From Candidatus Parcubacteria bacterium (GTDB lineage: Bacteria; Patescibacteriota; Minisyncoccia; Phycocordibacterales; UBA6065), in contig JBDKKJ010000005.1 of assembly GCA_039796155.1 (NCBI GenBank), positions 1-48,237 on the forward strand: a stretch of 48,237 bases of DNA, written 5' to 3'. Positions 1,768-47,229 of this stretch are shown here, piece by piece (within the stretch, counting starts at the first letter, position 1; every line of letters starts with the position of its first letter). Under the pieces are notes generated by a model that was not told the origin of the DNA, searched no databases, and saw only the letters and a program-made list of their open reading frames with translations. The position numbers were made by a program, and so were the translations under genes.

Positions 1768-1774
1768 AACTAAG

Positions 1775-2966: not shown

Positions 2967-2980
2967 TCACGGTCCACATT

Positions 2981-29135: not shown

Positions 29136-29175
29136 ATAAAAGAAAACCGCACACTGTGCGGTTTTCTTTTATTTA
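29133..29175. terminator. Bidirectional terminator ending dsbA and the 18-kb minus-strand island
   Basis: 20-bp stem taaataaaagaaaaccgcac-act-gtgcggttttcttttattta, spanning both stop codons. Confidence 0.85.
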
Positions 29176-29568
29176 CTTAACGACGGTGATAATACCTCTC
29201 TTGTTTGCATGAAAATGATCATGGAACCTCCACGTACCCGCTCTATCAAATGTAAACTGCCATGTTTCACCTGGACCCACAGGCTGACGTGGGTCAAACT
29301 CTGGATAAAGTTCATGTGTAGGATGAAGATCAGATGCGGGCCAGAAATTACAAGAAGCTTCCGACAAAGGGCAGTCTTCTGGCGCACCGTTCACAAATAA
29401 AATTGCCTGACCTTTTTGTATGGTAACTTCGGAAGGACTAAAACCATCTCGTGTCATTACTATCGTTGCAGATGGCTGCACTGCTACTGATTTTTTAAAT
29501 ATAAAATATCCAGCCACACCAACGACAGCTAATACAACTAAACCTAAGTAAATATTCTTTTTAGACAT
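29173..29568 (-). CDS. Membrane-anchored cupredoxin-fold protein (His-rich, no type-1 Cys)
   Basis: GFSPSEVTIQKG..F.N, WPASDLHPTH, PGETWQFTF..AGTWRFHDH and GIITV. Confidence 0.8.
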   Translation of the reverse strand: MSKKNIYLGLVVLAVVGVAGYFIFKKSVAVQPSATIVMTRDGFSPSEVTIQKGQAILFVNGAPEDCPLSEASCNFWPASDLHPTHELYPEFDPRQPVGPGETWQFTFDRAGTWRFHDHFHANKRGIITVVK

Positions 29569-30049
29569 ATTTTTTTATTAAAGTGCTACCAAGTACACCC
29601 AAGGCGAGGCCCCCACAAACAAGTCCTGTAAATAAAACATACGGCTGTTTCTGAGTAGATTCACCTTTTACAACCACGACATCAAAACTACTCTCGGAAA
29701 GAGTCTTTGATCTATCTTCGAATCTTATAAAGAGCTTGTAAGTCCCCTCTTCTGGGAAAATAAAGCTAAACCCTGTTTTTCCAAACTCACCGCGTGCTAT
29801 TGGGCCAGCAAAGAATAATTTATTATTCTTTTGAATTCGAACCCAGGCACTTGAAAATGGTATGTCTTCACGTGTATCTGCTTTAAGTAATGATAAATCC
29901 ATTCGAATGAATTCATTACTGATAAATTCAGCACTATATCCGATATCGAAGTAGTAGTCCCCCACTTTTTGTTCAAGAGAAAGACCGTCACCATGTGCAA
30001 AAATTGTAAGGGGTAGAAGAGATAGTAAGAAAATAAAAACGTATTTCAT
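29561..30049 (-). CDS. Exported YtkA/Ig-like protein with predicted mature N-terminal His and C-terminal anchor
   Basis: Signal peptide ...IFA|HGDG, F.FPEEGTY.L and C-terminal TM helix. Confidence 0.65.
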   Translation of the reverse strand: MKYVFIFLLSLLPLTIFAHGDGLSLEQKVGDYYFDIGYSAEFISNEFIRMDLSLLKADTREDIPFSSAWVRIQKNNKLFFAGPIARGEFGKTGFSFIFPEEGTYKLFIRFEDRSKTLSESSFDVVVVKGESTQKQPYVLFTGLVCGGLALGVLGSTLIKKYV

Positions 30050-30089
30050 ATATTGCTATTATACCGCCACCCTGAAAACATGCACCAGC

Positions 30090-31388
30090 TTAGTTTGAAT
30101 TCGTAAGACATTTTGTCTGCCACTGTGTGGGCAACAACATACAAAGCTTGGTAAAGTCTTTTGATTCTGGCGCATAGAGAAAACCGGCATAATAAGACAT
30201 TTCTTTATAGCAAACTTCCCCGACACCGCGTTCTGCAGCGTAATCACAAATGGCAACAGCTCTCTCAATAAGAAGTCTGTCGGTCTCAATTAATCGAGAC
30301 GCAGTATTGGCAAAGCACTGCGCCTTAATATCCAAAGGCAATTCCAAACACAACTTCTTCATTTTATCCGTATCAAATTGATAGGATGCCATAAGACCAT
30401 AGAAAAGTTTATTGAAACATTTCTTTTTCTCACCTGTATCAAGAGCATACGAACAGTAATCAATCACACCTTCGGTGGTACGTAGTGAGCCTTCACTTTC
30501 AATAACCCACGCCTCTCGAAAACAAGCGGTTCTCACAGTGTCAGAAAACGTATCGCAAAAGTTCTTGTAAACGCCCTGCCAACCAGCTTTCCAACAAGCG
30601 CCCTTTTGTACACCCGCCTCATACTGTTCACACACAGAGATGGCGTCCTTTTTTGGAATTAATTTATAGATAAGGCCGAAATCATCCGGTTCCCGAGGTT
30701 CAAATACTTGCATAAAAATACCCTCGTAGCAGGTTTCACGATAATCTCTTCCATCTGGTCTCTGAGCTAGCGCATCACACACCTTTGCCGACTCAACAAC
30801 ATTTGCATCAGCCAAATACATAGAAAGATGCCCTATCTCGTGATAGCAACTCGATTTTTCCTGATTAGTGGGATTCCAACCCTCTCTCTTCTCACAAATA
30901 TCCTTTAAGTCAGGCAGTAAATCATGAATTTCCACGCCGGAAAGTGAGGCCTTACTAAATCTTTCTTGTAGAGCGCCATGAAGACACCCATTGGAACATA
31001 TACCAACAGGGCAACGTGTCATGATACTTCGCCACTGTGCTGGATCTTTATAATACTCGTTTGCACTTATTTTATGAGCAGCAGCATGGCAAAACCAATA
31101 AGTATCATTTTGCTTCTGAACAAGCCTAACAACATCAAAAGCTTGCTCCAATGAAACGCCTTGGTTCATAATTTTTGGTATCTCAGTGTCATAGCAAGCT
31201 TGAGTAGAACTACCAGAAGCACCGCACAAGCTCAACACACCTTCAGCGAAGATATCAAGCTCAGCATCGCTGTGAATTCTTTGAGCCTTACTAGTGTAAA
31301 GAAAGAACAAAAGACCGATTACAAGCAAAGAAAAAGCTAACACGGTTGCAAGCAATTTTATCAGAGCTTTAGTATTTCTTTTTACCAT
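30090..31388 (-). CDS. Cys/His-rich helical-repeat exported protein, paralog 1
   Basis: TM anchor; CHAAAH, CSNGCLHG, CYHEIGH and CYEGIFM. Confidence 0.75.
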   Translation of the reverse strand: MVKRNTKALIKLLATVLAFSLLVIGLLFFLYTSKAQRIHSDAELDIFAEGVLSLCGASGSSTQACYDTEIPKIMNQGVSLEQAFDVVRLVQKQNDTYWFCHAAAHKISANEYYKDPAQWRSIMTRCPVGICSNGCLHGALQERFSKASLSGVEIHDLLPDLKDICEKREGWNPTNQEKSSCYHEIGHLSMYLADANVVESAKVCDALAQRPDGRDYRETCYEGIFMQVFEPREPDDFGLIYKLIPKKDAISVCEQYEAGVQKGACWKAGWQGVYKNFCDTFSDTVRTACFREAWVIESEGSLRTTEGVIDYCSYALDTGEKKKCFNKLFYGLMASYQFDTDKMKKLCLELPLDIKAQCFANTASRLIETDRLLIERAVAICDYAAERGVGEVCYKEMSYYAGFLYAPESKDFTKLCMLLPTQWQTKCLTNSN

Positions 31389-31394
31389 ACAAGC

Positions 31395-31766
31395 TTATTT
31401 CTCTATTACTGTAATTGCTCCTACAAAGTAAGGTGCGAGATGATCATGAAATTTCCACACACCCTCCCTCTTAAACTGAAAGGTCCATGTTTTGTCTTTA
31501 GCGATTGGCACCCGTGGATCAAACTCTGGATACAACTCATGTGTCGGATGCAGGTCTGACGCTGGCCAGAAATTTCGATCTATATCTGCTTGGAATGTAA
31601 CCTTATCACCCTTGTCGATAGTTACTTTTGAGGGGTAAAAACCTTTCTCGGTAAGTGCGATAAAAAACACCTTAGGTGTTTTTTGAAAGGCGCCAGTTTG
31701 TATAAAGAAATAGATACATAGCATTACAACCACTACAGTACAGCCTGTAATAACTTTATATATCAT
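31395..31766 (-). CDS. Membrane-anchored cupredoxin-fold protein (His-rich, no type-1 Cys)
   Basis: GFYPSKVTIDKGDKVTF, WPASDLHPTH and GVWKFHDH. Confidence 0.8.
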   Translation of the reverse strand: MIYKVITGCTVVVVMLCIYFFIQTGAFQKTPKVFFIALTEKGFYPSKVTIDKGDKVTFQADIDRNFWPASDLHPTHELYPEFDPRVPIAKDKTWTFQFKREGVWKFHDHLAPYFVGAITVIEK

Positions 31767-31768
31767 GT

Positions 31769-33046
31769 TTATTCAGCAGTACGCTTAAGTTCTGATTGCT
31801 GCCGATTTCCACTAAAACACTTTTCGTTCCATGGCACTGGCATCACCGCACAAAAAGATTTAAAAGCTTCACTTCCCTGATGGAAATTAAATGTTGAGTA
31901 TTTTAAAAGCTCTTTGAAACAGAGATTATCGACATCATACATTGCACCTTTTTCGCATAATGCCACAGCGCTCGGGCCATTTCTATAATCAGTTTCAATT
32001 AAACGCGATGACGCCTGTGCAAAGCAATTACCGCTATATTTTGAAGGCATCGCTGAGCAGTAGTCAAACACCTTGTCCTGATTAAAGCCCATTTGTGCTG
32101 TGTACACGTAAAGTAACGCATTAAAACAGCGACCCCTCTCCTGTTTTTCGCTAAGGTAGTTGCAGTGATTGATAAGATTCTCTGGCTTATACAACTCTTC
32201 TCGAAACAATGGCCAGCTTTCTGACCAACATGAACCCTTTTGTTTTCCTGCATAATCGTCACAGAAGGCCTTTACATGTTTCTTATCAACCTCCTTCCCT
32301 ACAATAAGCGCAAAGTCATCTGGTTCGAGAGGCTGAAATATTTGCATGAATGAACCGTCAAAACAAAGCTGAGAATAGTCGTTTTCTGGTTTAACAGTCA
32401 TCTCTTTGCAAAGCGAAACTGACTTGCGAATATCGGCGCCTGTCACGTACATAAAGAGATGCCCGAGCGCATGATAACAACTCGCCTTCTCAAGACCTGT
32501 TGGGTTGAAACCTGATCTGTTTTCACATACATTTTCAAACTGCGGCTTTAACACCTCAATTTCTTCGTCCGTAAGAACTTCTTTTCTAAAACGCTCCTGA
32601 AAGGCGCCGTGAATACAACCATTCGAACAAAGCCCTGAAGGACAACGCTTAATTACATCCTGCCATTTGTCAGGATCAACCGCAGTTTCTCGTGCTGCCA
32701 GTTTGTGACCCAATACATGACAGTAACGGTATGAAGGATCCTCATCCTGAATCAATCGAGTAACTTGAAAAGCATCCTCCATGGATATTTGCCCCATGAG
32801 TTTTGGGATCTCGTCGTCATAGCACGTAGGTTTATATTTTGATGACGAACACTTTGTTACAGTTGTATGTGCTAGTACCGTAAAATCCCCACTTTTAATC
32901 GAGCTACCCCCCAGGAGTGACAACTCGACCACAACAGCCAACAATAAAACTCCAACAAGCGAGAAAACAATTTTATTCTTTAAGAATTCTTTTCGCAGAA
33001 ACTTAAATGCCGCATGGAGATGTCTAACCCTGTGATCAAAAATCAT
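31769..33046 (-). CDS. Cys/His-rich helical-repeat exported protein, paralog 2
   Basis: CHVLGH, CSNGCIHG, CYHALGH and CFDGSFM; close paralog of 30090-31388. Confidence 0.75.
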   Translation of the reverse strand: MIFDHRVRHLHAAFKFLRKEFLKNKIVFSLVGVLLLAVVVELSLLGGSSIKSGDFTVLAHTTVTKCSSSKYKPTCYDDEIPKLMGQISMEDAFQVTRLIQDEDPSYRYCHVLGHKLAARETAVDPDKWQDVIKRCPSGLCSNGCIHGAFQERFRKEVLTDEEIEVLKPQFENVCENRSGFNPTGLEKASCYHALGHLFMYVTGADIRKSVSLCKEMTVKPENDYSQLCFDGSFMQIFQPLEPDDFALIVGKEVDKKHVKAFCDDYAGKQKGSCWSESWPLFREELYKPENLINHCNYLSEKQERGRCFNALLYVYTAQMGFNQDKVFDYCSAMPSKYSGNCFAQASSRLIETDYRNGPSAVALCEKGAMYDVDNLCFKELLKYSTFNFHQGSEAFKSFCAVMPVPWNEKCFSGNRQQSELKRTAE

Positions 33047-33074
33047 ACACCAATTATATCATCTAAATATGTGC

Positions 33075-34553
33075 CTAAGGTGCTACACACAACTTTCTGT
33101 ACTTAATATCGATAGTTGCACATATAGAAGCCTGTTTTTCTGGTGGGTAATAAGCACGGATACCGCCAAAGGCCATCTTAATACATTGGATCCTCTCGTC
33201 CTCAAGGAGCTTTTCTGACATACAAAAAGCGACCGCTGCCTCATACTCTTTACCTGGAGTTCCAAACTCCATGATTCCACTTGGAATACCCTGCAAACAC
33301 GGTACAACCAAATCCTTTCTTGCAGAATGACACGCGTCAATGGTATTTTCAAAATCTTCATCAAAAGGTTGTTTAAAACGCGACGGTACAACGCCAGACA
33401 AACTTCTCATTGCAAGAGCCGCATACTTATTTTCATCATCTATCTTTTCAACAAAATGAATTCCCTTCTTGAGATCACCCTGTGCCAAACGCATACCCAA
33501 AGTATTCATTTCTTGGTAGCACGGATTTTTTATGCGAAATTCATCCCAATTTTTACACACCTCAAAAGGATTTGTGACACTATCAAGGCGCAAATTATAT
33601 GAATTTGCCATATACATAAGTGCCAACGAATTAAATACACCAGAAACACATCTGTAAAAATGAGGTTCTTTTGAATCGACTTTATTACAAAGCTCTATAC
33701 CCGGCGAAACGAGCGCGATTGGATTACCCCACGCACGAGGATCGCTCCCGTCAGCAGCACCGTGTCCTATACCGTGATAACAAGCACCCTCAGCGTTTGC
33801 GCTTTCCTTTGAGAGTATCTTACCTGCATCAGTACAAAATTTTCTTGCATCATCGAGATTTCCCGATAACTGCAACATTTCCTCCATAAAGCCGTGATAA
33901 AAACCATAACTACAATAAGATGTTTTTCCTGTAAGTTTTATAGTACCCCCCTCTTCAAACACATGGTACGCACTTTTCCCGAGTATATGAGATACGGCAT
34001 GACATGAATCTTTGAATGCAGGTTCGTTATTATACAGAAACGCCATTCTATCAAGCGCTTTTTCTAAGCCCTCTTTTTTAAGAACGCCTACCACATCTAT
34101 TTGATAGCACTCACTTGGAGTAGAGTTCTTATTTTTACAGTCTGGTAAGACCACCTTACCTGTTTTACTCAGCACGACTATCTCCCCTTCCACTACAGAC
34201 GCCAAATGATCATGGAATTTCCACACACCAGGATTTTGAAAACTGTATGTCCATGTATCATTGGGCTTTAAAGGTCTTCTTGTATCAAACTGAGGATCAA
34301 CATTATGAGTTGGATGTGGATCAGATGCAGGCCACACTTCGTGTGTTGAGTCATTTATAAATGTAACTACATCGCCCATGTTTACAACCAAACGTCGTGG
34401 CGATAAACCACTTTCATTAAACCTAATCTCTTTAATGGGTGAAAGCGCTAGATCATCACTCCTATATTTTAAAAATAGAATTGGGATAATCACACACAAA
34501 AAACCGATACTTATAACTATCTTTATATTTTTAATTTTCAGAAGACTCTTCAT
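33075..34553 (-). CDS. Fusion of His-rich cupredoxin and Cys/His-rich helical-repeat domain (paralog 3)
   Basis: N-terminal WPASDPHPTH..WKFHDH; C-terminal CHAVSH, CSYGFYHG, CYHGIGH and CVSGVFN. Confidence 0.78.
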   Translation of the reverse strand: MKSLLKIKNIKIVISIGFLCVIIPILFLKYRSDDLALSPIKEIRFNESGLSPRRLVVNMGDVVTFINDSTHEVWPASDPHPTHNVDPQFDTRRPLKPNDTWTYSFQNPGVWKFHDHLASVVEGEIVVLSKTGKVVLPDCKNKNSTPSECYQIDVVGVLKKEGLEKALDRMAFLYNNEPAFKDSCHAVSHILGKSAYHVFEEGGTIKLTGKTSYCSYGFYHGFMEEMLQLSGNLDDARKFCTDAGKILSKESANAEGACYHGIGHGAADGSDPRAWGNPIALVSPGIELCNKVDSKEPHFYRCVSGVFNSLALMYMANSYNLRLDSVTNPFEVCKNWDEFRIKNPCYQEMNTLGMRLAQGDLKKGIHFVEKIDDENKYAALAMRSLSGVVPSRFKQPFDEDFENTIDACHSARKDLVVPCLQGIPSGIMEFGTPGKEYEAAVAFCMSEKLLEDERIQCIKMAFGGIRAYYPPEKQASICATIDIKYRKLCVAP

Positions 34554-35596
34554 TATATAAGAATTTTAGCCTGTTCATTACAGTATTCTTTATCAACGGA
34601 ACTCAATCCTTCACACAACACTCCCATTTTATTTCGTGTTGTTGGTTCTGCAAAAAAGGCCCAAGACGCTCCTGCACGACATTCAAGCAAATCTTGATGT
34701 TTCGGCATGAGCTCACACTGGTTAATAGCCTCCTCGGAATTGTATTTAGAGCCGGCGGCTATTGTATTTCCCAAACCCTTAAAACACGCATCTCGCATAG
34801 ATCCGATCGGTGCCAAACCACACAGTAAACCTGTTTTAGCATAATCATGTGAGACAGTAGCGTAGTGCCAGGCAGGAAGCTCGAAATAACACGCTTGAGA
34901 GAACCTCTTGTTGACAGTGTCACACGGGAAGAGGGGCTTTTGGGAATCGAAAACTCTTCCCTGTGCACCCTGTATGCTCTGCATGGTATGAAAATTATAT
35001 TCCATGAAGACACCACTTTGACAGCCGTTAAACAATCCTTTCCAAGAAAGTTTTGAACAAACTTCGAGGGCTTTATCAAGTGAGTCATTTCCAAGATATC
35101 CCAACACTCCGTGACCAATACCATGAGGACATCCCAGACCCTTCGGACCAAACTTTTTTACACACAACTCATCAAGAGTAGTTACAGACTCAATTCCCCC
35201 ATCAGTTATTGCCCGTCCGAAAAAACTGTGATAACAGCCAAAGGCGAAAGATGCGTCACACACAACTATCCCGTTAATTCCCTCTTTCTCGTATATAAGT
35301 TCACCCATAATATGAGACAGGGTGTGAGCGATACCAAACCCCTTACCCTGGGTATCGATTTTAAAATCTTGATATGCCTTTTCGGCACCAACTGTGTCAA
35401 TTTCCTTTTTCCAAAAAGCGCGTTCTTTAGTATAGTTACCTGACCACAACACATCCAAAGAATCTTTTGGTTTGCTCTTAGTTGAAAAATACATGATAAC
35501 CAGAGAAAGTACCACCGCAAAAAGTACAACAATACTCGTCACCAGTACTTTATTTTTCAATAAAAAATGTTTATGTTGATTCCACATCACTTTCAT
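34553..35596 (-). CDS. Cys/His-rich helical-repeat exported protein, paralog 4
   Basis: AHTLSH, FGCYHS, CPHGIGH and CQSGVFME. Confidence 0.75.
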   Translation of the reverse strand: MKVMWNQHKHFLLKNKVLVTSIVVLFAVVLSLVIMYFSTKSKPKDSLDVLWSGNYTKERAFWKKEIDTVGAEKAYQDFKIDTQGKGFGIAHTLSHIMGELIYEKEGINGIVVCDASFAFGCYHSFFGRAITDGGIESVTTLDELCVKKFGPKGLGCPHGIGHGVLGYLGNDSLDKALEVCSKLSWKGLFNGCQSGVFMEYNFHTMQSIQGAQGRVFDSQKPLFPCDTVNKRFSQACYFELPAWHYATVSHDYAKTGLLCGLAPIGSMRDACFKGLGNTIAAGSKYNSEEAINQCELMPKHQDLLECRAGASWAFFAEPTTRNKMGVLCEGLSSVDKEYCNEQAKILI

Positions 35597-35603
35597 AACT
35601 AGA

Positions 35604-36623
35604 TTATAGCTTATTTACTCTGTCTGAAATATCCTTTTGTGAGGGGCACTCCTTAATATCTTTGCCTGAAAGTTTATCGCATACCTTTATAGAGTCGTTT
35701 CTTGCCTTTAATTCTGCAAAAAATGCCCACGCAGCCCGCTGTAAGCATGAAACCTCGCCTGCCTTTTCCTTAATGTAGGCACACGATTGCTGCGTTTTCA
35801 ATACATCATATTCAGAACTTGGAGCAGCTACATTACCGGTACCTAGATAACAAGCTTCTTTTTCTTTAGCTCCTACGATAGAAGCACAGAAATCGGCGGC
35901 ACGCGCAAAGTCATTTTTAAATATTCTAAGCCACCACTGGGGCTGTTCAAAATAACACGTTTCCCTATTCTTTGTAGGAATATCTGTACATGGTTCATAC
36001 GGTCTTTGTGGGTCAAACTTTCTATTTTCGGCGGAAACGACACTTTGCATTGTATGAAAGTTATACTCCATGAACACCCCACTTTGGCAACCGCCAAATT
36101 TTTCTTTCCAAACCAACTTATCACAGACACCAAGTGCTTCAACGAGTTTTTCGTCTCCGAAATACCCTAAAATTCCATGACCAATGCCATGAGGACACCC
36201 CAAGCCAAGACCCCAGCGTTTATAACACGCCTCAGCAAGTCTGGTAATAGAATCAAGACCTTCTGTAGCAATCGCTTTACCAAAAAAACTGTGATAACAG
36301 CCAAAGGCAAAAGCCCCGTCACAAACCGTAATACCCTTTTCGCCTTCACTCTCATAAAGGAGTTCGCCCATAATATGAGCCAGTGTATGTGCAACGTCAA
36401 ATTCTTTATCCGCTGTATCTTTTTTGAAAATTTCGTAGGCTTCTTCAGCACCCAGCTTTTTAATAGAAGCACGAAGCGCATCTTTTTCCTTTACATAATT
36501 ACCCACCCATAATTTTTGAAGCGGGTCTTGTGGATACCCTTGATCCTCGCTTTCCTTATAAATCAAAGAGCTGAGGCAGAAAAAGAGAATTATTACTGCA
36601 CTGACAAGATTTTTTGTTGACAT
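35604..36623 (-). CDS. Cys/His-rich helical-repeat exported protein, paralog 5
   Basis: AHTLAH, FGCYHS, CPHGIGH and CQSGVFME; close paralog of 34553-35596. Confidence 0.75.
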   Translation of the reverse strand: MSTKNLVSAVIILFFCLSSLIYKESEDQGYPQDPLQKLWVGNYVKEKDALRASIKKLGAEEAYEIFKKDTADKEFDVAHTLAHIMGELLYESEGEKGITVCDGAFAFGCYHSFFGKAIATEGLDSITRLAEACYKRWGLGLGCPHGIGHGILGYFGDEKLVEALGVCDKLVWKEKFGGCQSGVFMEYNFHTMQSVVSAENRKFDPQRPYEPCTDIPTKNRETCYFEQPQWWLRIFKNDFARAADFCASIVGAKEKEACYLGTGNVAAPSSEYDVLKTQQSCAYIKEKAGEVSCLQRAAWAFFAELKARNDSIKVCDKLSGKDIKECPSQKDISDRVNKL

Positions 36624-37819
36624 AATTTCTTTCGATCACCCTCCATACTGTTACAAATATATTCTCTACGTGATGCGTCTTGTATATAGAATTTAACCTC
36701 CGAAAAAAGTTCATTAAGACAGTCAGAATTTTTCATGCGCTTGTCTGCAAGTTCACAGAAGTGAACAGCGGCCTTTGGATCATTCTCACCTCCCCACAGC
36801 ATAGAACCAAGTGCAGACAGTATACAGTGTTTCTTACCATCAGCAGGCCCAGCAAGGTAACACCAATCAAGAACATTAGTTGCCTGGGCAGTGTTCATCT
36901 GATCAATCTTCCGAATATCGCGATTCTGAGCAAGAACTATGAATTCTTTACCAAAACCAGCAAAACAAGCCTTCCGATCTTCGCCAGTAAGAGGTTCACA
37001 GTATGTAAATGCCTCCTTGTACTGACTTGGTAAAGGATAACCGAGATCAGCCCCGGCGGTCTGAAAAAGATGGGGTGTAAGATATGTGTAACACATACCC
37101 CTCATTGATCCCGGCATAAATGATGCATCGCAAGGAAAAAGCGGATCACTCTTTTTGAAATATTTCTTAACCTTCTCTTGCCACATCTCCCTATCATGTA
37201 CTCCGGCAATCATTTCCATAATTGTACCCCCCACACACTCGATAGCCTCGCGACCATTAGCGCCGCCAAAACCAACCTTTTCACACATTTTTACAGCTAG
37301 AGGAAGCTCGTAGTCGTTAAACGCCAAAACACCGTGACCTAGTCCGTGAAAACACATTGTATATGCCCCAGTACCTCCTGGAGCCTGCTTGCAAAGCTCA
37401 GCAATTTCAGCAAGTGAATCAGGTCCCTTTTCAAGAAGAGTGCCGATCACAATAGTGTGTGAACACGCGTTTCTAAAATCCTGATCACAAATCAATATAC
37501 CCTTGGCACCTTGCTGTTTATAAAGAATATCCCCCACTATATGCCCTAACAAATGAACGTCTATTCCAGCTGGAAGCGGTGCACGTTTCAGAACCTCGAA
37601 CGCGTAAGGTGCTCCTTTTTTATTGGCAACATTTGCAAAGAAAACAGACAAATCCTTAAAAGATGCATCTGGCTTTATTTGGGAAATCTCTTCGTACGAA
37701 GCATTTGAGCTCTGAAAAAGATACATTCCCATTAGAAAACAGCTTGAGGTCAAAAATATGATAGAAAGACCCAACCAGCCGACGCGATGCCACGCTGATT
37801 TAATATGTTTTCTCATCAA
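36593..37819 (-). CDS. Cys/His-rich helical-repeat exported protein, paralog 6
   Basis: VHLLGH, NACSHT, CFHGLGH and CVGGTIME. Confidence 0.75.
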   Translation of the reverse strand: MMRKHIKSAWHRVGWLGLSIIFLTSSCFLMGMYLFQSSNASYEEISQIKPDASFKDLSVFFANVANKKGAPYAFEVLKRAPLPAGIDVHLLGHIVGDILYKQQGAKGILICDQDFRNACSHTIVIGTLLEKGPDSLAEIAELCKQAPGGTGAYTMCFHGLGHGVLAFNDYELPLAVKMCEKVGFGGANGREAIECVGGTIMEMIAGVHDREMWQEKVKKYFKKSDPLFPCDASFMPGSMRGMCYTYLTPHLFQTAGADLGYPLPSQYKEAFTYCEPLTGEDRKACFAGFGKEFIVLAQNRDIRKIDQMNTAQATNVLDWCYLAGPADGKKHCILSALGSMLWGGENDPKAAVHFCELADKRMKNSDCLNELFSEVKFYIQDASRREYICNSMEGDRKKLCQQKILSVQ

Positions 37820-37829
37820 GAGGTTAGAA

Positions 37830-38369
37830 CTACTTTACGACCACCATTCCTGCAGGACCGCTTGAACCATCACATCCGAAACCATAAATGCCTACACCCA
37901 TTCCAAATGTAGCCTTTATAATCTTGCTTGAGTTAGCGGGAATTTTGAATATCTTGTCAGCATTAAATACAATTGAGTGTTCGACAGTGTCATCGTTCAC
38001 AAAAGATATATCTGAATCATTAATTACACCTGATACGGTTGGCTTTGCTGTACATGAAGATATATTGACTGTTTTTGTGTCAACGGCCGAACTGTACACA
38101 CGCTGTACAAAAGCTTGTTTTTCCGCTTCAGTCGCATCTGGCTTTGGTGAATTAAGAAGAGCCTTTGCCTCCACTTTATCTGCCTCACTCAACTTTTTAG
38201 TAGGATCAACGGGAACAGGTTTTGAAACAGGGGCTGTAACCGGTGCTTTAACTGGTGCTTTAACTGGTGCTGATACTGAAGAGAGGGACTGCTTCTGATA
38301 AATCTTAAATCCGAGAAACGCCGCCGCTACGATAAGTACACCGAGAATTATTTTTAGAGCTGTATTCAT
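37830..38369 (-). CDS. Membrane-anchored degenerate cupredoxin-like protein
   Basis: TM helix, (K/T)APV repeats, ISFVNDDTVEHSI, IPANSS, GIYGFGC and GMVVV. Confidence 0.6.
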   Translation of the reverse strand: MNTALKIILGVLIVAAAFLGFKIYQKQSLSSVSAPVKAPVKAPVTAPVSKPVPVDPTKKLSEADKVEAKALLNSPKPDATEAEKQAFVQRVYSSAVDTKTVNISSCTAKPTVSGVINDSDISFVNDDTVEHSIVFNADKIFKIPANSSKIIKATFGMGVGIYGFGCDGSSGPAGMVVVK

Positions 38370-38453
38370 ATGTTTATTTTATGTGTATTTATTATACCAC
38401 CTCGGCTACTCAAAACCATAGACCGCAAGATGGTGTGTATAACTATTCTCAAA

Positions 38454-39551: not shown

Positions 39552-39554
39552 TAA

Positions 39555-40067
39555 TTAAGGTGTTATATAAATATAACCAACTGTAACCCTAGGTTCTCCA
39601 CATACATATGGCAATATCCTTCTTAAAACATTTTCGTTAGTCCATGTCAACACGCTCGTTGAAGCGGTTTCCCCGGGTTTTATACTTATAGACTGTTTTC
39701 CTACTTGAATTCTAATATCTTCCTCGGAGAGGTTCTTGAAACCAACTTGTTCTCCTTTTCTTATGTGCACTGTAGCTGGAAAAGGATTACAGCCATCCAT
39801 AACCACCGTTGAAGCTTCAATTGCGGCCGCTTTTGCATACAAGAAATACTTTTCCATACTATCCTTCGGCATTGGTCTAAAACCTGAAAGAAGATTATCG
39901 GCTGCTGTTGCATAAGGATTGCCCTCTAAGTTTGTTTTAAATCGGTATTCCGTCACATCTGAAGCCAGAGATTTTTTATTCCGCATAATATTGTCCGTGT
40001 ATAACACAACACCAACAATTATTGAGCTGAGTAGACCGAGATAGAAAGCAATGTACAACTTGTTCAT
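39555..40067 (-). CDS. Membrane-anchored degenerate cupredoxin-like protein
   Basis: GCNPFPATVHIRKGEQVGFKN, IKPGET, YVC and GYIYI; similar layout to 37830-38369. Confidence 0.55.
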   Translation of the reverse strand: MNKLYIAFYLGLLSSIIVGVVLYTDNIMRNKKSLASDVTEYRFKTNLEGNPYATAADNLLSGFRPMPKDSMEKYFLYAKAAAIEASTVVMDGCNPFPATVHIRKGEQVGFKNLSEEDIRIQVGKQSISIKPGETASTSVLTWTNENVLRRILPYVCGEPRVTVGYIYITP

Positions 40068-40089
40068 ATAAATTAGTTTTATAAATATA

Positions 40090-40911
40090 CTACATACATA
40101 CTTCTAGGTCACAGACACGATCCCAGGTTACACATTCACCTACACTATCCCAACTCGTACACACATCCTCCCACGCTTGACACGTAAGCTCCGGGACACT
40201 GTAACATTCTCCGTCGCATTCTATGTGTCCTGGTCCACACCCGGTATCACCACATGGTAATCCAAGAGCTGGACTACAGTAGGCACTCTCAGAGTAATAA
40301 TGACCTTCTCCGTAGTAATAGCCCTGGTAGTAGTAATAGCCTTCTCCGTAGTAATAGCCTTGGTAGTAGCCTTCTCCGTAGTAATAGCCTTGGTAGTAGC
40401 CTTCTCCGTAGTAATAACCCTCGTAGTAGCCTTGGCCGTAGTAGTAACCTTGTGCGTAGTAATAGCCTTCTCCGTAGTAATAGCCCTGTGCGTAGTAATA
40501 GCCCTGTGCGTAGTAATAGCCTTGGTAGTAACTCTGGTAATAGCTCTGGCTATAGTAGTAACCTTGTGCGTAGTAATAGCCTTGGCCGTAGTAATAGCCC
40601 TGTGCGTAGTAATAACCCTCTGAATACGGCGGTAGACACACCACCTTACTTACATTCGCGGGAAGGTATGCATAAAAATTGAACCATTCCGCGACGGTTT
40701 TAATTGGAACGTAGATAGGGAGGTTTGGGACAACATTACTGACGGTATAACAGACTGCATTTGGTCCTGTAACATCGAGCGATGTACCGGGATCAACCTT
40801 ACAGTAGTCTGTAAAACATGCCGATGCGGCAGCAACATCCCCCGCTTTAAAAAGAAGTACGAGAGCGAGGGTTATGTATGCAATTTTTGATAAAAGACGC
40901 ATCGGATACAC
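40090..40911 (-). CDS. Secreted Tyr/Gly-rich repeat protein with Cys-rich flanking domains
   Basis: Signal peptide (probable start MRLL), Cys domain with YVPIKTVAEW, (YYYxQG/YYYGEG/YYQG)n core, Cys-rich tail. Confidence 0.8.
   Translation of the reverse strand: MYPMRLLSKIAYITLALVLLFKAGDVAAASACFTDYCKVDPGTSLDVTGPNAVCYTVSNVVPNLPIYVPIKTVAEWFNFYAYLPANVSKVVCLPPYSEGYYYAQGYYYGQGYYYAQGYYYSQSYYQSYYQGYYYAQGYYYAQGYYYGEGYYYAQGYYYGQGYYEGYYYGEGYYQGYYYGEGYYQGYYYGEGYYYYQGYYYGEGHYYSESAYCSPALGLPCGDTGCGPGHIECDGECYSVPELTCQAWEDVCTSWDSVGECVTWDRVCDLEVCM
40279..40626 (-). repeat. In-frame coding tandem repeat (12- and 18-bp units)
   Basis: Repeated gtagtaatagcc(ctgtgc/ttctcc/ttg) on the + strand; 116 codons, 57 Tyr by manual count. 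Confidence 0.9.
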
Positions 40912-40914
40912 TAA

Positions 40915-41478
40915 TTACTTCATTTTCAGTTCTGCAATTTCCGCTTTAAGACTATCAATCTGCTTTTGCTGATCCTTAATTGCTTCTATAAGTGGAGCAA
41001 CAAGGTTTCCGTATTGGACTGATTTCATACCGTTCTCACTTGTGCTTACGAGTTCTGGATACACTTTTGCAACATCTTGCGCAATGAGTCCCATGCTCGG
41101 TGTTTTATCCTTTTTCCATGTGAATGTTACACCTTGAAGTTTGAGAATATTTGAAAGAGCGCTATCAAGTGGCTTGATATTGTCTTTAAGACGTCGGTCT
41201 GATGTATAAAAATAGCCAGTAGCACCAACGTTTCCATTCACATCAAGGTTATACGAAGGTGACATGCCGACACCCAGTTTCTGGTTGAACTGTGAGTTGA
41301 GTGTTGCAACAAATGCTCCTACGCTCAAGTTCCCTGACTTGGTCTGTGCGGTAGCACTGTCGTTTATAGGAGTCGCAGTGTTACCACTTGTTGGTGCAAA
41401 TGCAGGGTTGCTCCACACCTGAGCGGATGCCCCTGATGCAATCGTCAACAATGTGAGTGAGAAAATAATCTTTTTCAT
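40915..41478 (-). CDS. Secreted protein with Peptidase S74 / tail-fibre intramolecular chaperone domain
   Basis: Signal peptide, TSDRRLKDNI, GLIAQDV..VYPELV, V.YGNLVAPLIEAIK and coiled coil. Confidence 0.88.
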   Translation of the reverse strand: MKKIIFSLTLLTIASGASAQVWSNPAFAPTSGNTATPINDSATAQTKSGNLSVGAFVATLNSQFNQKLGVGMSPSYNLDVNGNVGATGYFYTSDRRLKDNIKPLDSALSNILKLQGVTFTWKKDKTPSMGLIAQDVAKVYPELVSTSENGMKSVQYGNLVAPLIEAIKDQQKQIDSLKAEIAELKMK

Positions 41479-41512
41479 AAAGTTAAGTATATCAATTACT
41501 TCTTAAAATGTA

Positions 41513-41815
41513 TTAACGAGCACTTCCCGCCTCCAACGCCTTAAGTAAATCCAACTGCTGATTCTTTGTCATAACAGGGGCCGTTGAGGACGCTTCAAGC
41601 CTTTTAAGTACCGCCTCTTGCTCTACCCTCGGAACGGGTTTTGAAGCTGACGCGGCTTCAAGTCCCTCAAAAGTACCGGTCACCTCCTTGGGTGTAGGCG
41701 ATACTTTTGCCTCGGTTCCCGGACTGACCACTTGATTTGTATTGGTTTCTTTATATATCCAAAATCCACCAACCACCCCAATAATCACAACAGCTGCAAT
41801 AATAATCTTATTCAT
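41513..41815 (-). CDS. Hypothetical single-TM protein
   Basis: N-terminal anchor; three short LEA(A/S/G)S-like repeats. Confidence 0.6.
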   Translation of the reverse strand: MNKIIIAAVVIIGVVGGFWIYKETNTNQVVSPGTEAKVSPTPKEVTGTFEGLEAASASKPVPRVEQEAVLKRLEASSTAPVMTKNQQLDLLKALEAGSAR

Positions 41816-41821
41816 ATTCCT

Positions 41822-43060
41822 TTAAAATTCTTGATAGCGTGGGTCAAAATTTGCTGGGTTAAGCGTAACATCAACAGTTCGTACAAGATTTGAGTTTGTT
41901 GAGGTGCCTGTAAGTCGGATTGTGTATGGTCCTGTAAATGCTGGTGCACCCGCAACTCGTGTTACTCGAACCCTGAGCCCCGCGCTCGCTGAGTATGGTG
42001 TTGGGATAGTGCTTGTAAGTGAGCCAGATCCCTTGGCATAGTAGTTTGTACCTCCATTGAGAGAATACATAAACGTTGTACTTGCGATTGTTGGTGGATA
42101 GTTTGAAATCCCAATAACTACAGGATTTGCTGCCGTAACAAAGGCTGCATTAGGAGCGACTGGAACAAGCTTTGTTTCAGAATCAGCAGTTCCTGTTGGA
42201 AGAATCTGTATTGTCATATTCTGATTTGAACCAAGGGTGTAATCCTGAGGTTGAGGTGCAACCGTGAAACTTACCTGTTTCGAAACAGTAGGATTTGTAC
42301 AATCAATGCTATATGTGTGAAGACCTGAAACACTCAAAGCATCCTCAATCTGTGATCCAGATGTTGTTTTTCCTGTAATAGGGGTGCTAAATGGACTACC
42401 TCCAACTGTCTTTGTAACGGCACAAGAACCCGAGATATTTGTGAGTGTCCACAAGAACGTAGGAATCGTAGCATATGTTACCGCGCCATTATTTACTATA
42501 GAGATACCGCCATTTTGTACATCAAGACTTGCATCACCAATCATTTTCACACCATTAGCACCAGCCGCATCAAAACTGATCCAACCCATCACAGCGTTTC
42601 CCCAGGCGTACCCAGAAAAAGTAGTACCTGAAAGCGTCACACCGTAAGCCGGCGAAGTACCTGAAAATGAAATCCATCCATCCCAGCCACCACCATTTGA
42701 AAGTACTCGCGCCCAACCCCGCAATGCACCACCAACTACTTGTGCATCCTGAGTATATGTACCCGTTCCTACTGGAAAACCAGACGTCAAATTACCAAAT
42801 TGAATCCAACCTACATTTGATGACCATGCGTAACCAGGAACACTACACGTATCGTTTCCACAAAGTCTTCCATCTGCTGTCTTATGAACTCCATAATCTG
42901 CGGTTCCGCAAGTTCCTGTATTCGTACAATTGAAGCTAATCCAACCGATATTTGATGACCAGGCATAACCCGAGAGATTGTGTTGGGTGCCAGCAGATGC
43001 GAAAAAAGGAATCACCGAAAGCGCAATAATAAAGAGAAATTTAAAAAATACTGATTTCAT
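41822..43060 (-). CDS. Secreted protein with four GYAW..GWI(S)F repeats and C-terminal Ig-like domain
   Basis: Signal peptide from MKSVFF; start set by the extended -10 at 43068-43076 and the upstream terminator; ends PRYQEF. Confidence 0.75.
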   Translation of the reverse strand: MKSVFFKFLFIIALSVIPFFASAGTQHNLSGYAWSSNIGWISFNCTNTGTCGTADYGVHKTADGRLCGNDTCSVPGYAWSSNVGWIQFGNLTSGFPVGTGTYTQDAQVVGGALRGWARVLSNGGGWDGWISFSGTSPAYGVTLSGTTFSGYAWGNAVMGWISFDAAGANGVKMIGDASLDVQNGGISIVNNGAVTYATIPTFLWTLTNISGSCAVTKTVGGSPFSTPITGKTTSGSQIEDALSVSGLHTYSIDCTNPTVSKQVSFTVAPQPQDYTLGSNQNMTIQILPTGTADSETKLVPVAPNAAFVTAANPVVIGISNYPPTIASTTFMYSLNGGTNYYAKGSGSLTSTIPTPYSASAGLRVRVTRVAGAPAFTGPYTIRLTGTSTNSNLVRTVDVTLNPANFDPRYQEF

Positions 43061-43114
43061 TACGTATATCATACCAGTTGACAGACCTAAGCTCAATATA
43101 CATATTAACAGTCG

Positions 43115-43157
43115 AAACAAAACACCCCGCGGCCTACGGCCGCGGGGTGTTTTGTTT
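43115..43157. terminator. 20-bp inverted repeat, terminator of the 888-aa gene
   Basis: aaacaaaacaccccgcggcc-tac-ggccgcggggtgttttgttt. Confidence 0.85.
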
Positions 43158-43166
43158 TTAAAACCT

Positions 43167-45833
43167 TTAGAATTCTCTGTATCCAGGATACAAAGGACGT
43201 GAATCAAGATTAACTGTCGCTGTTTGTGTGATGGTCCCAACCTGACTATCTACACCAACGCCCCTGAAGGTTATTGAATACGTACCCGTCTCAGAAAGTT
43301 TCTTATTGAAGCGTACTCTCACTGGCAGAAACTGTAATCCACCACTGTTAAGAGTAAATGGAATGGTGAGATTCGGCGAAAAGTCTGACCCGTTATAAGA
43401 GAACACAGGCTCTACATCTGCCGGAGCAGATGAAACCTCAAGTGAAACCGGTGCTGTAAAGTATGAAGTGTTCACCGAAAGATTAATCGTTTCATCAGCA
43501 GCGCCAGCATATCCGGCAACTGATCGAATCTTTACATTATTTGGCGTTGCAGAAAGACTGAATGATGGTGCTACACATATGTTTCCTGACACATTCACGG
43601 GCTTACTTCCAGGACACACACAGGTTGAACCTGACTTTACCTTATCTCCAGAACACACAACTGGTGGCGGTACTACCGTACATGTTTTAGCCACTGAGTA
43701 ATTCTTACCTTCACAACTAATTGAATAGCTTGTACCGCTGATATTCTCGAAACCACTCGCTGGTTTCGAACCACAACTCGCTACTCCCGTCACATTCCAT
43801 GTGACTTGATTATAACTAGTACCCATTGCTGTTCCCCAATTGTATCCAAGATACCCTCCGTCATGATTATCAGTCACACTTCCAGAAGCGGGATATACAC
43901 AACCCCCGCCGCCGGTACCTGTACCCGTATTCCCTCCAGGACCACTAGTACATGACGGATCTGTTGGATTTAGAGTACAGAAACTTGGCGGTGGTGTAGC
44001 GGCTACGGTAAATGCCTTTGTTCCACCGAACCACTCTTCACCTTGTTCTACAGCCTGCAACACATAGCTACCTGGAGTAGTTGGTGCGGTCATGCCTACT
44101 GTTTTTTGACCTCCAATACCGGTTGTAGCAAGATTCGCAAAAAACACAGCGTTCTGACCAACAGGCAAAATACCCAACTGATGTCCAGCACCCCATGTTT
44201 TTGTACCATTATTAGTTACAGAAACATTAAACGACTGTCCAGGAGTTACTTGTGATGGGAATGAATTATACGTTATACCGTTTTGAGGTATACCAACAGT
44301 CACACAATCTCCACTTGCGTTAACAGTCATACCTGTGGGAACTGATGCTTGATCGCCTCCGATGTTTGGACACACGTCTATTGTTGGTGCAGCTGCAACC
44401 GTTACCGAAGCGCTTCCCGACCACGGATTCATGTTTGTACCCGTACAACTGAGATTAAATGTTGATGCCTGTGATACAGATACTGTTTGATTTCCCGAAG
44501 TTGCCTTTGTGCCCGACCAAGAACCTGATGCGGTACACGAATTAGCACCAGATGCAGACCAGGTTATCGTCACGTTTCCCCCACCTGATGAAACCTGTGT
44601 CGGAGACACGCCAATGGAACCAGTTATGTCGCCCGGAGGACTAACGGGCGGTGCACAGTTGATCGTTGATTGCCCTATGTATGCATTCGGTTCTGCAGTT
44701 GTATCTATGGCATATGCATATATGACTCTGTTTGAATTTGTTTTAAGACTCACTGGAGTCGGATAACTATAATTACCACTTGAATCAGTTGATGTGTTTC
44801 CTCCCCAGCTACCACTGCCCGCAGGTCCGTCTACATAAAAATGAACACTTACAGATTGTCCTGGGGTATTTGAATCAGTTGCACTTCCTGAAAACGCACT
44901 ACACCCCGCACTGAAACTTCCTGTCGGAGGATTGTTTGTCACCGGTGGAGCTACACATGTATATGAACTATTAAATACATAACTGTTATTACATATACAA
45001 TTAGAGCCGCTGATTGAGGTTCCTGTTGGTGCACTCGCCTGTGTTCCCGGAATGTTTGCGCACACGTCAGTGGTGGTAGTTGTAGTATCTACACAATCAC
45101 CACTCCCATTAATTTCTTTGCCTGTCGGTACCGAAGTTTGAACCCCATCTATATTTGGACACACGTCAGTGGGCGGTGTTATACAGTCACCGATATTTAT
45201 CGTATGACTGATAGTTCCTGATACAGCCCCTTTTGCATCAGTTGCCCAAGCGGTATACGTGATTGAATCTGGACCTTTATCTAAACTATCGTTCTCAGAA
45301 ATACCCGTACTCCCATCACCCCCGCCCGCGTTCGCAAATGCCACACCATCTTTACGAATATTTACATACATCAGATTTCCATCCTGATCATCCGCAGTTG
45401 CCTGAATTTGATAAAGTGCGTCACACTGAGCTGATGCCGGCACTGATGTCCAAGAGATTGTTGGAGCACTGTTTGCAGGTCGTGCGCAATAAATATCTTT
45501 GAACCATTTACTACTTACACATTTAAAACCTTCCCATGCTCCATTTTTCCAAATAATTGAATACTCACTATTACACCTATCATACTGACCCAAGACTGCA
45601 TCATACGTATACGTCTGATAGCCACTCATTTCACAAAGGTGGTCTGCCGTTGGACCATCATTGTAAAAGTTCTGCGTAACATTTGCGTAAGGTACGCCAA
45701 AGTTATATACATTAGAAACATCAACCCATCCACACTCTTTTCCGGCCGGACACGTCGCAGCAAATACCTGGGTTAATCCAGCAACCAATATGAGCACACC
45801 CGCAAACAAACTCGATAGAAGTATTTTTTTCAT
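43167..45833 (-). CDS. Large secreted modular surface protein (Ig-like domains, Cys-rich DVCxNI repeats)
   Basis: Signal peptide, three copies of DVC(P/A)NIxGxQxSxPTG, Thr/Gly/Ser-rich, ends PGYREF. Confidence 0.75.
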   Translation of the reverse strand: MKKILLSSLFAGVLILVAGLTQVFAATCPAGKECGWVDVSNVYNFGVPYANVTQNFYNDGPTADHLCEMSGYQTYTYDAVLGQYDRCNSEYSIIWKNGAWEGFKCVSSKWFKDIYCARPANSAPTISWTSVPASAQCDALYQIQATADDQDGNLMYVNIRKDGVAFANAGGGDGSTGISENDSLDKGPDSITYTAWATDAKGAVSGTISHTINIGDCITPPTDVCPNIDGVQTSVPTGKEINGSGDCVDTTTTTTDVCANIPGTQASAPTGTSISGSNCICNNSYVFNSSYTCVAPPVTNNPPTGSFSAGCSAFSGSATDSNTPGQSVSVHFYVDGPAGSGSWGGNTSTDSSGNYSYPTPVSLKTNSNRVIYAYAIDTTAEPNAYIGQSTINCAPPVSPPGDITGSIGVSPTQVSSGGGNVTITWSASGANSCTASGSWSGTKATSGNQTVSVSQASTFNLSCTGTNMNPWSGSASVTVAAAPTIDVCPNIGGDQASVPTGMTVNASGDCVTVGIPQNGITYNSFPSQVTPGQSFNVSVTNNGTKTWGAGHQLGILPVGQNAVFFANLATTGIGGQKTVGMTAPTTPGSYVLQAVEQGEEWFGGTKAFTVAATPPPSFCTLNPTDPSCTSGPGGNTGTGTGGGGCVYPASGSVTDNHDGGYLGYNWGTAMGTSYNQVTWNVTGVASCGSKPASGFENISGTSYSISCEGKNYSVAKTCTVVPPPVVCSGDKVKSGSTCVCPGSKPVNVSGNICVAPSFSLSATPNNVKIRSVAGYAGAADETINLSVNTSYFTAPVSLEVSSAPADVEPVFSYNGSDFSPNLTIPFTLNSGGLQFLPVRVRFNKKLSETGTYSITFRGVGVDSQVGTITQTATVNLDSRPLYPGYREF

Positions 45834-45838
45834 GGGTG

Positions 45839-47152: not shown

Positions 47153-47229
47153 GCAATAAGTATATCAGAAAGCTGTTTATAGCCCTATAAATTTGAGGCA
47201 TAATAGCTATTGACAAATACTAAAATGAC

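Follow-up and report, generated by a model that had tools for sequence, protein, structure and literature searches.

The described systems that come closest to a tyrosine (Tyr)-rich repeat protein of the bacterial surface are the SYGQ domains of FUS, EWSR1 and TAF15, which are eukaryotic and intracellular; the DOPA (3,4-dihydroxyphenylalanine)- or quinone-tanned proteins of mussel foot, trematode eggshell, insect cuticle (with laccase) and the Bacillus spore coat (CotA), which are made with a copper oxidase partner; silk fibroin with its GAGAGS/GAGAGY units; and the Ser-Asp stalks of the staphylococcal Clf/Sdr proteins. These are analogies, with no homology to the Tyr core considered here, which is encoded by a member of the candidate phyla radiation (CPR, or Patescibacteria). 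A large part of bacterial diversity belongs to the CPR, whose members live on other cells, and to our knowledge almost nothing is known of the composition of their surfaces. We analyzed a stretch of 48,237 nucleotides (nt) from a Candidatus Parcubacteria bacterium (contig JBDKKJ010000005.1; the whole stretch is hereafter the window), the minus strand of which encodes an exported protein with a Tyr-repeat core, and found that genes bearing such repeats co-occur and colocalize with a cluster of five-His and cupredoxin-like genes. The Tyr-repeat gene and its parts are as follows:

40090..40911, minus strand: Tyr-repeat open reading frame (ORF), intact, 273 amino acids (aa) from the GTG at 40911, stop codon at 40090-40092
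40822..40902, minus strand: predicted signal sequence MRLLSKIAYITLALVLLFKAGDVAAASA, residues 4-30, hydrophobic, with an Ala-x-Ala type end (read from the sequence)
40627..40821, minus strand: N-terminal domain (N-domain), residues 31-95, an unannotated family (phmmer, alignment and AlphaFold2, AF2)
40279..40626, minus strand: Tyr-repeat core, residues 96-211, with YYYxQG/YYYGEG 6-mers and YYQG/YYEG/YYQS 4-mers
40093..40278, minus strand: acidic 10-Cys C-terminal domain, residues 212-273, shared with the homolog P0014 and more loosely with P0013 and P0015

None of the three parts of the protein (N-domain, Tyr core and Cys tail) matches a described family. What is new is the N-domain/Cys-knob architecture, the series of orthologs in which the repeat unit is replaced, and the two-way quantitative test of the association. 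The 116 residues of the core comprise 57 Tyr, 25 Gly, 13 Gln, 8 Glu, 6 Ser, 6 Ala and 1 His, with neither Lys nor Thr, and its character is neutral to acidic. The 6-residue units are YYYAQG (five copies), YYYGEG (five), YYYGQG (two), YYYSQS and YYYYQG, the 4-residue units are YYQG (three copies), YYQS and YYEG, and the array opens with YSEG and ends with HYYSES. A preliminary description, made from the sequence alone, had called the core half Tyr and composed only of even-length units, and both statements were borne out, the first by the residue count (57/116 in 40279-40626) and the second by the distances between successive Gln/Glu positions, 15 of which are of six residues and five of four, with none odd (n=20). 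The Gln-to-Glu drift toward the C-terminus that it reported is likewise present, the Glu-holding units being numbers 1, 10, 13, 14, 16, 18, 20 and 21 of 21, seven of the eight within units 10-21. Such a density of Tyr lies far beyond chance: no other six-frame ORF of 60 aa or more in the 672,516-base genome reaches nine Tyr within any 30 residues. The even register extends beyond the window: in related arrays with a Tyr fraction of at least 0.43, 343 of the 349 Gln/Glu spacings are even (238 of six, 104 of four, one of two) and six are odd. The rule is not universal, as 32 odd spacings were counted overall, 22 of them from the 9-residue units of Pro-containing variants. Since one-codon slips in Tyr runs should be easy, the kept even register points to selection for a two-residue period. 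The argument that synonymous variation between units betrays selection on the protein is weak, because units identical in peptide are mostly identical in DNA (YYYAQG, five copies in two versions; YYYGEG, five in two; YYQG, three in one) and the unit DNA is stereotyped (TAT TAC TAC ...); a rough count across the 14 six-mers gave proportions of synonymous and nonsynonymous differences (pS and pN) of 0.33 and 0.14. Tandem Repeats Finder reported periods of 18, 30, 36 and 114 nt, the last at 88% match, and this period together with the identical unit DNA makes the array look like a product of fairly recent slippage or duplication rather than a set of long-diverged copies.

The occurrence of the module was followed with the pattern YYYxQGYYxxxGYY, which by our estimate would match about 0.004 times by chance. 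Over one genome for each of 185,579 species, it returned 26 stretches in 18 assemblies, of which 17 bear the title of a CPR lineage (Saccharibacteria, Parcubacteria/Paceibacteria, Taylor-, Colwell-, Nomura- and Gottesmanbacteria, "Patescibacteria group") and one that of "uncultured bacterium". Among 400 sampled genomes of the phylum the sole match to the shorter YYYxQGYY holds a stop codon; the module is thus rare within the phylum as well, and this count is to be read as a lower bound, repeats often being lost from metagenome-assembled genomes. The arrays of proteins P0001-P0012, obtained by phmmer and word searches, are 56-82% identical to that of the window. Their carriers are unrelated to one another. 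In some, about 250 aa long and with an HSFxESP-type domain, the array comes right after the signal peptide; in others, of 760-980 aa, it makes up the very C-terminus; in two prepilin-like proteins it is the tail; and elsewhere it lies between the domains of CARDB, PKD and Ig-like giants and of giants that we read from the sequence as PG_binding-type. The carriers have hydrophobic N-termini, again by reading, and reach up to 1177 aa. Together, these observations reveal the Tyr array as a CPR-restricted module shuffled among unrelated surface proteins.

Several individual carriers show features of their own. The two prepilin-like ones, P0004 and the protein at 3461-4138 (plus strand) of locus L033, have the N-termini GFTLLI and KKGFTLIEML, and the window encodes PilB, PilC and PilM/N homologs. 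At 1739-4501 (plus strand) of locus L024, a 920-aa surface protein bears a Tyr array followed by a C-terminal domain that reads as Hint/intein-like. In the literature searched (subscription journals lay outside its scope), neither the motif strings of the protein nor the term "tyrosine-rich" in combination with Patescibacteria or candidate phyla radiation was found. A paper that mentions both cupredoxin and Patescibacteria (PMC12931201) deals, in the passage concerned, with plastocyanin-like carriers for NirK and not with the five-His/cupredoxin-like cluster.

The cluster in the window, which holds the only copies in the genome, has the following content:

29173..37819, minus strand: linked cluster, starting about 2.3 kb downstream of the Tyr-repeat gene
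36593-37819, 35604-36623, 34553-35596, 33075-34553, 31769-33046 and 30090-31388, minus strand: six paralogous membrane-anchored His/Cys-rich proteins (339-492 aa)
31395-31766 and 29173-29568, minus strand: two Cys-less cupredoxin-like proteins (Cupredoxin_1 matches)
29561-30049, minus strand: 162-aa protein, its mature form predicted to begin with His, with a membrane helix at the C-terminus and no Pfam match

The six paralogs represent a family, here called five-His, with no relative in Pfam, NCBIfam or the PDB. In the numbering of the 36593-37819 product, H89, H121, H158, H162, H208, M201 and E202 are invariant and H93 nearly so, and 13 Cys are invariant across 16 sequences, or 16 Cys are conserved at 93% or more across 14 orthologs. 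The protein at 33075-34553 has an additional N-terminal cupredoxin-like domain. The cupredoxin-like domains lack the Cys ligand of blue copper sites and conserve the motifs WPASDxHPTH and FHDH. The 162-aa protein has a predicted signal cleavage site A|H in all four orthologs read, a topology that we take to be reminiscent of copper-binding YcnI-type or histidine-brace proteins. These motifs suggest that the cluster binds a metal, probably copper.

In 13 of the 18 assemblies found by the array pattern, the five-His family lies within the 4-kb flanks of the Tyr-array gene; of the remaining five, one has a partial match where its contig ends, in one the family lies at a distance of 5.4 kb, one has only a cupredoxin-like gene in the flank, and two have the family on other contigs. 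A strong ortholog of 36593-37819 is present in all 18 (37-66% identity, E of 1e-95 or better). As a background, 150 sampled high-quality genomes of the phylum gave a single-protein match at E<=1e-10 in one case and matches of the family profile at E<=1e-5 in three, all weak. Among the 41 genomes closest to that of the window, the family is found only in five (G000, G005, G009, G011 and G016), each of which encodes a Tyr-periodic repeat protein within a few kb of it; searches with the target as query brought up no Tyr array in the remaining 36. The reverse test started from 80 metagenome loci fetched by the family motif HG[LIF]GHG alone and confirmed by tblastn. A Tyr-rich ORF (at least nine Tyr in 30 residues) was present in 28 of the 80, or in 20 of the 41 loci of at least 8 kb, often immediately upstream and on the same strand, and 11 had the strict YYYxQGYY; one locus fetched in this way (L064) contains P0014, an ortholog of the target, 2.5 kb upstream. 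Tyr-repeat genes thus co-occur and colocalize with the five-His/cupredoxin-like cluster; the preliminary description had named the lack of a link to the neighboring genes as a ground for refutation, and the link is in fact strong.

At seven of the loci (L063, L073, L075, L097, L100, L113 and L122) and others, two to four HSFxESP paralogs stand upstream of the five-His gene, and among these tandem paralogs only the last gene bears an N-terminal Tyr array.

We consider the chances about even that the protein is, as a whole, a three-part surface protein with a Tyr stalk that is a client of a putative metal cluster. In this model the N-domain head would dock or anchor the protein, the array would form an exposed, extended, sticky, Tyr-faced stalk, and the Cys tail would close it with a small acidic 10-Cys knob. 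The stalk would be the client, whether substrate or ligand, of extracytoplasmic metal machinery, probably using copper; the cluster might then oxidize Tyr to DOPA/quinone or to dityrosine, and the modified Tyr could give a cross-linked, hardened or adhesive envelope or attachment structure. These steps differ in credibility. That the protein is a structural or adhesive surface protein functionally coupled to the cluster is likely, if far from certain, and the Tyr-rich structural or adhesive character proposed earlier is the best fit for an exported modular protein. That the coupling consists in oxidative modification of Tyr, the most economical chemistry, is a tentative suggestion, with the balance tilted against it. 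The strongest form, in which Tyr arrays are dedicated substrates of an undescribed extracytoplasmic oxidase system, probably of copper type and composed of the five-His proteins (as helical-repeat membrane proteins), the Cys-less cupredoxin-like domains and the N-terminal-His protein, and in which bacterial quinone tanning hardens the envelope or glues the episymbiont to its host, we regard as rather improbable.

Several points weigh against this model or its parts. On the side of the association, 52 of the 80 family loci have no Tyr-rich ORF in view, many of them being short; related genomes are not independent, and near-duplicate loci occur (e.g., L103/L104, L107/L108, L058/L059); colocation could come in part from a general surface-gene island; and in two relatives of the same genus (G003 and G006) the N-domain gene retained at this spot has thrombospondin-type Cys repeats, with neither a Tyr array nor the family present. 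On the side of chemistry, metal binding rests on motifs; a Pfam scan of 50 window ORFs revealed no tyrosinase, Cu-oxidase/laccase or peroxidase family; Lys, which DOPA adhesives contain, is missing from the core; many CPR bacteria are regarded as anaerobes and O2 is required by copper oxidases, although the window does encode an Fe/Mn superoxide dismutase; and a PMT_2 glycosyltransferase is present in the arrays of surface genes of relatives, so that glycosylation could be the link instead of oxidation. As for the protein itself, the Logan data from the array interior consist only of unitigs of 47-112 nt, which leaves the repeat number provisional; the sole contig from an RNA library, 160 nt with 8 mismatches over 40787-40932, comes from a relative and could be DNA; and AF2 on the full-length protein without an alignment gave a mean predicted local distance difference test score (pLDDT) of 41, with long beta hairpins drawn at low confidence.

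The cupredoxin-like domains also bring to mind a redox wire, in which radicals would hop along a Tyr ladder between the cupredoxin-like proteins and an outside partner. Their colocation with the array, and the array as C-terminal tail of two prepilin-like proteins, would suit such a wire, but the cupredoxin-like proteins have no blue-copper Cys ligand and no cytochromes or respiratory partners were found among the Pfam-scanned ORFs of the surface-gene array; the idea is purely speculative and highly improbable.

The orthologs of the same genus show how freely the center of the protein changes. P0013 of genome G016, the closest positional ortholog, has the center (xYSEGYYPP)n, that is, 9-residue Pro-Pro units; G005 has two copies with (YESx)n-type centers and G009 one with (YTGx)n; further orthologs have YGQSGYYx and SGYTGAYTVE units. 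Other N-domain proteins at the locus contain a PPVT-rich region (G009) or long thrombospondin-type Cys repeats (G003, G006 and G011), and in G011 a YYYxQG array occurs instead in a neighboring protein of the surface-gene array. In the short ortholog forms the center is always periodic in Tyr with Gln, Glu, Ser, Thr or Gly, and it is replaced freely while the flanks are conserved. Such free replacement argues against a single obligatory fold, for example a specific solenoid, and indicates that composition and periodicity are conserved instead. The same hypervariability among positional orthologs (YYYxQG, xYSEGYYPP, (YESx)n, YGQSGYYx, SGYTGAYTVE, PPVT-rich, thrombospondin type 1) would suit an unmodified sticky stalk, a low-complexity spacer or promiscuous adhesive patch that makes contacts through Tyr, keeps the Cys knob at a distance from the cell and evolves fast under pressure from hosts or phages; that it lies near the cluster would then reflect a shared island of surface genes and no chemistry. 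The position of the module at free termini or between globular domains fits this explanation, as do the adhesion-type modules of N-domain proteins (F5/8 type C, TSP1, ALK/LTK glycine-rich). It leaves unexplained, however, why two rare features co-occur in 18/18 assemblies against 3/150 in the background, and why Tyr arrays are missing from members of the genus without the family; we give it a minor but serious share of the probability.

With respect to conformation, we infer that the two-residue register places Tyr, Tyr and Gln/Glu on one face of a strand and Tyr, a small residue and Gly on the other, and the array would accordingly tend to a beta-type conformation. The preliminary description went further, to a cross-beta or beta-solenoid fiber with stacked Tyr ladders. 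Such a fiber would be a functional amyloid or silk-like. The strictness of the register (20/20 in the target, 343/349 elsewhere), the long beta hairpins of the low-confidence AF2 model and two faces that would suit sheet packing all lean that way. Yet such a fiber is not required by the data: positional orthologs carry other Tyr-periodic units, P0013 at the same position being built of 9-residue Pro-Pro ones, and the model has a pLDDT of 41. Further, 9-residue units interrupt the arrays of P0012 and L019; the array is only 116 aa long, with a globular disulfide-rich domain at either end; the scan of window ORFs brought up no curli/Fap-type assembly family, and the protein has no Pfam or NCBIfam match; and even units could come merely from slippage of two ancestral sizes (18 and 12 nt). 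We hold a fiber of this kind to be unlikely.

That the Tyr-repeat ORF is a real gene was confirmed, and its product is predicted to be exported. The ATG at 40900-40902 (residue 4) is a likelier start than the listed GTG because the alignment with the ortholog P0013 and the ESM Atlas record both begin at residue 4, and the signal sequence that follows suggests export through Sec. A Cys follows the signal sequence in the target (A-S-A-C), whereas orthologs have A-S-S-C, D-S-F-C or no Cys; a lipoprotein reading was set aside, the lipobox L-[AS]-[GA]-C not being conserved among orthologs. Full-length orthologs that keep both flanking domains are known in P0013 (54% identity), P0014 (55%) and P0015 (38%). 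Logan contigs from three freshwater metagenome runs of three studies match 39800-40359 and 40585-41200 with no mismatches, and these perfect matches reach 81 nt into the array at its low-coordinate end and 42 nt at the other. In the Logan contigs, a loose end of 15 nt at 40368/40398 hints at another junction or strain, and strain variants at 40504, 40507, 40508 and 40519 occur in one run; taken one by one, three are silent and one changes Ala135 to Gly, on a free "x" position of the repeat unit. The ORFs on the opposite strand across the array are by-products of the repeat. A scan over 29000-48237 gave 34 promoter and 20 terminator sites, where shuffled sequences gave 42.7 and 15.5, and carries no information on operon limits.

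Searches with the whole protein gave no match in Pfam, NCBIfam or PHROGs, rows at chance level only among PDB sequences, and no usable feature match in the ESM Atlas for either part of the protein, the structure rows there resting on a model of pLDDT 0.41. An exhaustive phmmer search over 1.84 billion representatives returned 38 matches, 20 with the N-domain, 12 sharing the Tyr array only and 6 unrelated; rows P0016, P0019, P0029, P0031, P0034 and P0038 were set aside as other low-complexity repeats, some of them eukaryotic-looking.

Two further readings, a multi-core precursor of ribosomally synthesized and post-translationally modified peptides (RiPPs) and a non-gene or assembly artifact, could draw on the many near-identical short units and on a repeat number that contigs cannot check. 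The artifact is countered by the full-length orthologs with conserved flanks and by the identity of the flanks in contigs of three studies. The RiPP reading, which the preliminary description had entertained, fails on the absence of radical-SAM, P450, YcaO, lanthipeptide and other modifying-enzyme families and of peptidase or exporter families among the 50 window ORFs (Pfam), on the size of the protein (273 aa with two folded domains), and on the presence of the array elsewhere inside large Sec-exported proteins of up to 1177 aa. We reject both.

The two flanking domains agree with what had been read from the sequence, a 4-Cys N-terminal domain (Cys 32, 37, 54 and 92) and an acidic Cys-rich C-terminal one (ten Cys between 212 and 272). 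The N-domain stands directly after the signal sequence in 20 proteins, with the motif TGPDxxCxxVTN...[YF]VPxKTxxEWxxF...PxxVxxxxC. An alignment of 21 sequences over about 65 aa has invariant Cys, Asn, Glu, Trp and Phe and near-invariant Pro, Pro, Val and Cys; the main Cys pair is 54/92, and 32/37 is an extra pair of a subgroup. With this alignment AF2 predicts a confident small beta/alpha fold (pLDDT 88.2; predicted template modeling score, pTM, 0.71). The domain has no match in Pfam, NCBIfam or PHROGs and only chance-level rows in a PDB profile search, and fold searches gave nothing significant (best E of 1.7 with Foldseek against the PDB, best Z of 3.2 with VIA-align, best E of 0.74 among the viral models of BFVD); a word-based search with the domain alone (residues 25-95) returned 13 candidates, none of which scored. 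The bodies that follow the N-domain are fully divergent and include Cys-rich repeats, an ALK/LTK-type glycine-rich region (P0023), F5/8 type C (P0020) and a Peptidase_S74 end (P0040). One N-domain protein comes from Omnitrophota, and every named one is a "hypothetical protein". A head that is kept while the bodies vary points to docking or anchoring, which is the probable role of the N-domain. A predicted complex of it with three copies of the Peptidase_S74 (S74) protein encoded next to the Tyr-repeat gene had a score of 0.00, which carries no weight either way. At the other end, the last 62 residues contain 12 Asp/Glu and a single Arg, and the corresponding domain of P0014 has the motif CSPxLGLPCGxxGCGxGHIECDGEC...

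The Tyr-repeat gene lies inside an 18-kb run of genes on the same strand (47152 down to 29173), separated by 12 nt from the S74 gene, which stops ahead of its ATG, and by 22 nt from the next gene. The other features of this neighborhood are:

47238-48152, minus strand: IS30-family transposase, at the upstream end of the surface-gene array
43167..45833, minus strand: 888-aa secreted protein ending in YPGYREF
41822..43240, minus strand: secreted protein with GYAWSSNIGWISF-type repeats, ending in DPRYQEF, its real start probably near 43060-43072
41513..41815, minus strand: 100-aa N-terminally anchored protein, a conserved array member with a 97-aa counterpart in G016
40915..41478, minus strand: upstream neighbor, secreted, 187 aa, with a C-terminal Peptidase_S74 domain (Pfam 8.7e-19; PHROG tail-fiber families to 9e-40)
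39555..40067, minus strand: downstream neighbor, 170 aa, membrane-anchored, weakly cupredoxin-like, position conserved in relatives
38454-39551, minus strand: GH3 (NagZ-like beta-N-acetylhexosaminidase), inside the array and not at the matching position in G016, G005 or G009
37830..38369, minus strand: 179-aa membrane-anchored protein, a conserved array member
28425..29135, plus strand: DsbA-like thioredoxin (Pfam Thioredoxin_4 1.2e-24, DSBA 9.6e-16), with the same neighbor in G009

The gene order in G016 is the same as in the window: a secreted protein ending in PGYIEI, a GYAWSSNIGWISF-repeat protein (DPRYGEF), a 97-aa protein, the S74 protein (73% identical, at the matching position), P0013 and a 164-aa protein. 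The DsbA-like protein is a plausible maker of the many disulfides, and the window also encodes an Fe/Mn superoxide dismutase. The large secreted proteins of the array share a tail, P-x-[YF]-x-E-[FI], seen as DPRYQEF and YPGYREF in the window and as PGYIEI, DPRYGEF, DPSFNEI, NPEFREF and IPKFEEF in relatives, and it recurs in P0009, L011, L012, L014, L016 and L017; of the 1273 genomic ORFs that reach 100 aa, two have it, those at 41822-43240 and 43167-45833. It is possibly an unrecognized sorting or assembly tag. In the array of G011, a collagen triple-helix repeat protein (L014 10539-11714, plus strand; Pfam 1.1e-14) stands between the Tyr-array protein and an S74 protein, and in the equivalent array of G005 a PMT_2 gene, GT-C type and protein mannosyltransferase-like, is found at L012 11813-13300 (minus strand; 5.4e-10).

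This last gene bears on another reading, in which the Tyr repeat is an acceptor to whose Tyr, Ser or Thr residues a GT-C type membrane glycosyltransferase would attach O-glycans, giving a mucin-like coat. Proteins of about 480-570 aa ending in ...YRF or ...YKF also recur in the G005 array, and O-glycosylation of Tyr occurs in the S-layer proteins of Paenibacillus and Thermoanaerobacter. In the genome of the window, however, the sole PMT_2 match is on another contig (C2), and the core offers six Ser and no Thr, which leaves glycosylation a very unlikely explanation when set beside a stalk coupled to the metal cluster.

As to significance, the Tyr module is a recognizable, CPR-restricted and costly handle on CPR surfaces, and its two-way co-occurrence with the cluster joins two sets of "hypothetical proteins" into one system, a likely substrate with likely enzymes or carriers. 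Module and cluster together hint at a novel means by which a cell surface is built or hardened. Should Tyr oxidation be confirmed, the enzyme chemistry and the kind of bacterial surface material would both be new; otherwise the array would still be a candidate adhesin element in host contact. Set against the described systems, the core resembles the SYGQ domains of FUS, EWSR1 and TAF15 in being made almost wholly of Tyr, Gly, Gln and Ser, with Tyr as the sticky residue, and those domains can form cross-beta polymers; the stretch YGQSGYYSYGQSGYY of P0014 is very like them. SYGQ domains are nevertheless irregular, far poorer in Tyr and confined to the inside of eukaryotic cells, whereas the Tyr core is 49% Tyr, strictly periodic and exported. 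With silk fibroin the core has in common six-residue units, alternate Gly and a two-residue register that suits beta sheets, but silk consists of small residues and forms bulk fibers, while the array has bulky Tyr at half of its positions and is short and capped by domains. The Ser-Asp stalk of Clf/Sdr is, like the array, a fast-evolving low-complexity spacer, and it is modified by enzymes encoded nearby; it differs in its residues, in its anchoring by sortase and in its occurrence in Gram-positive pathogens. Phage tail-fiber ends with a Peptidase_S74 chaperone offer a likeness for the upstream neighbor, and for the fused P0040, rather than for the Tyr-repeat protein. The tanned proteins, finally, are basic and rich in Lys, whereas the core has no Lys and the adjacent cupredoxin-like proteins are single domains without the Cys ligand; they share with it secretion and tandem repeats of Tyr and Gly, and, just as they are made with a copper oxidase partner, the Tyr core lies near copper-type proteins and may serve, as we propose, in hardening or gluing.

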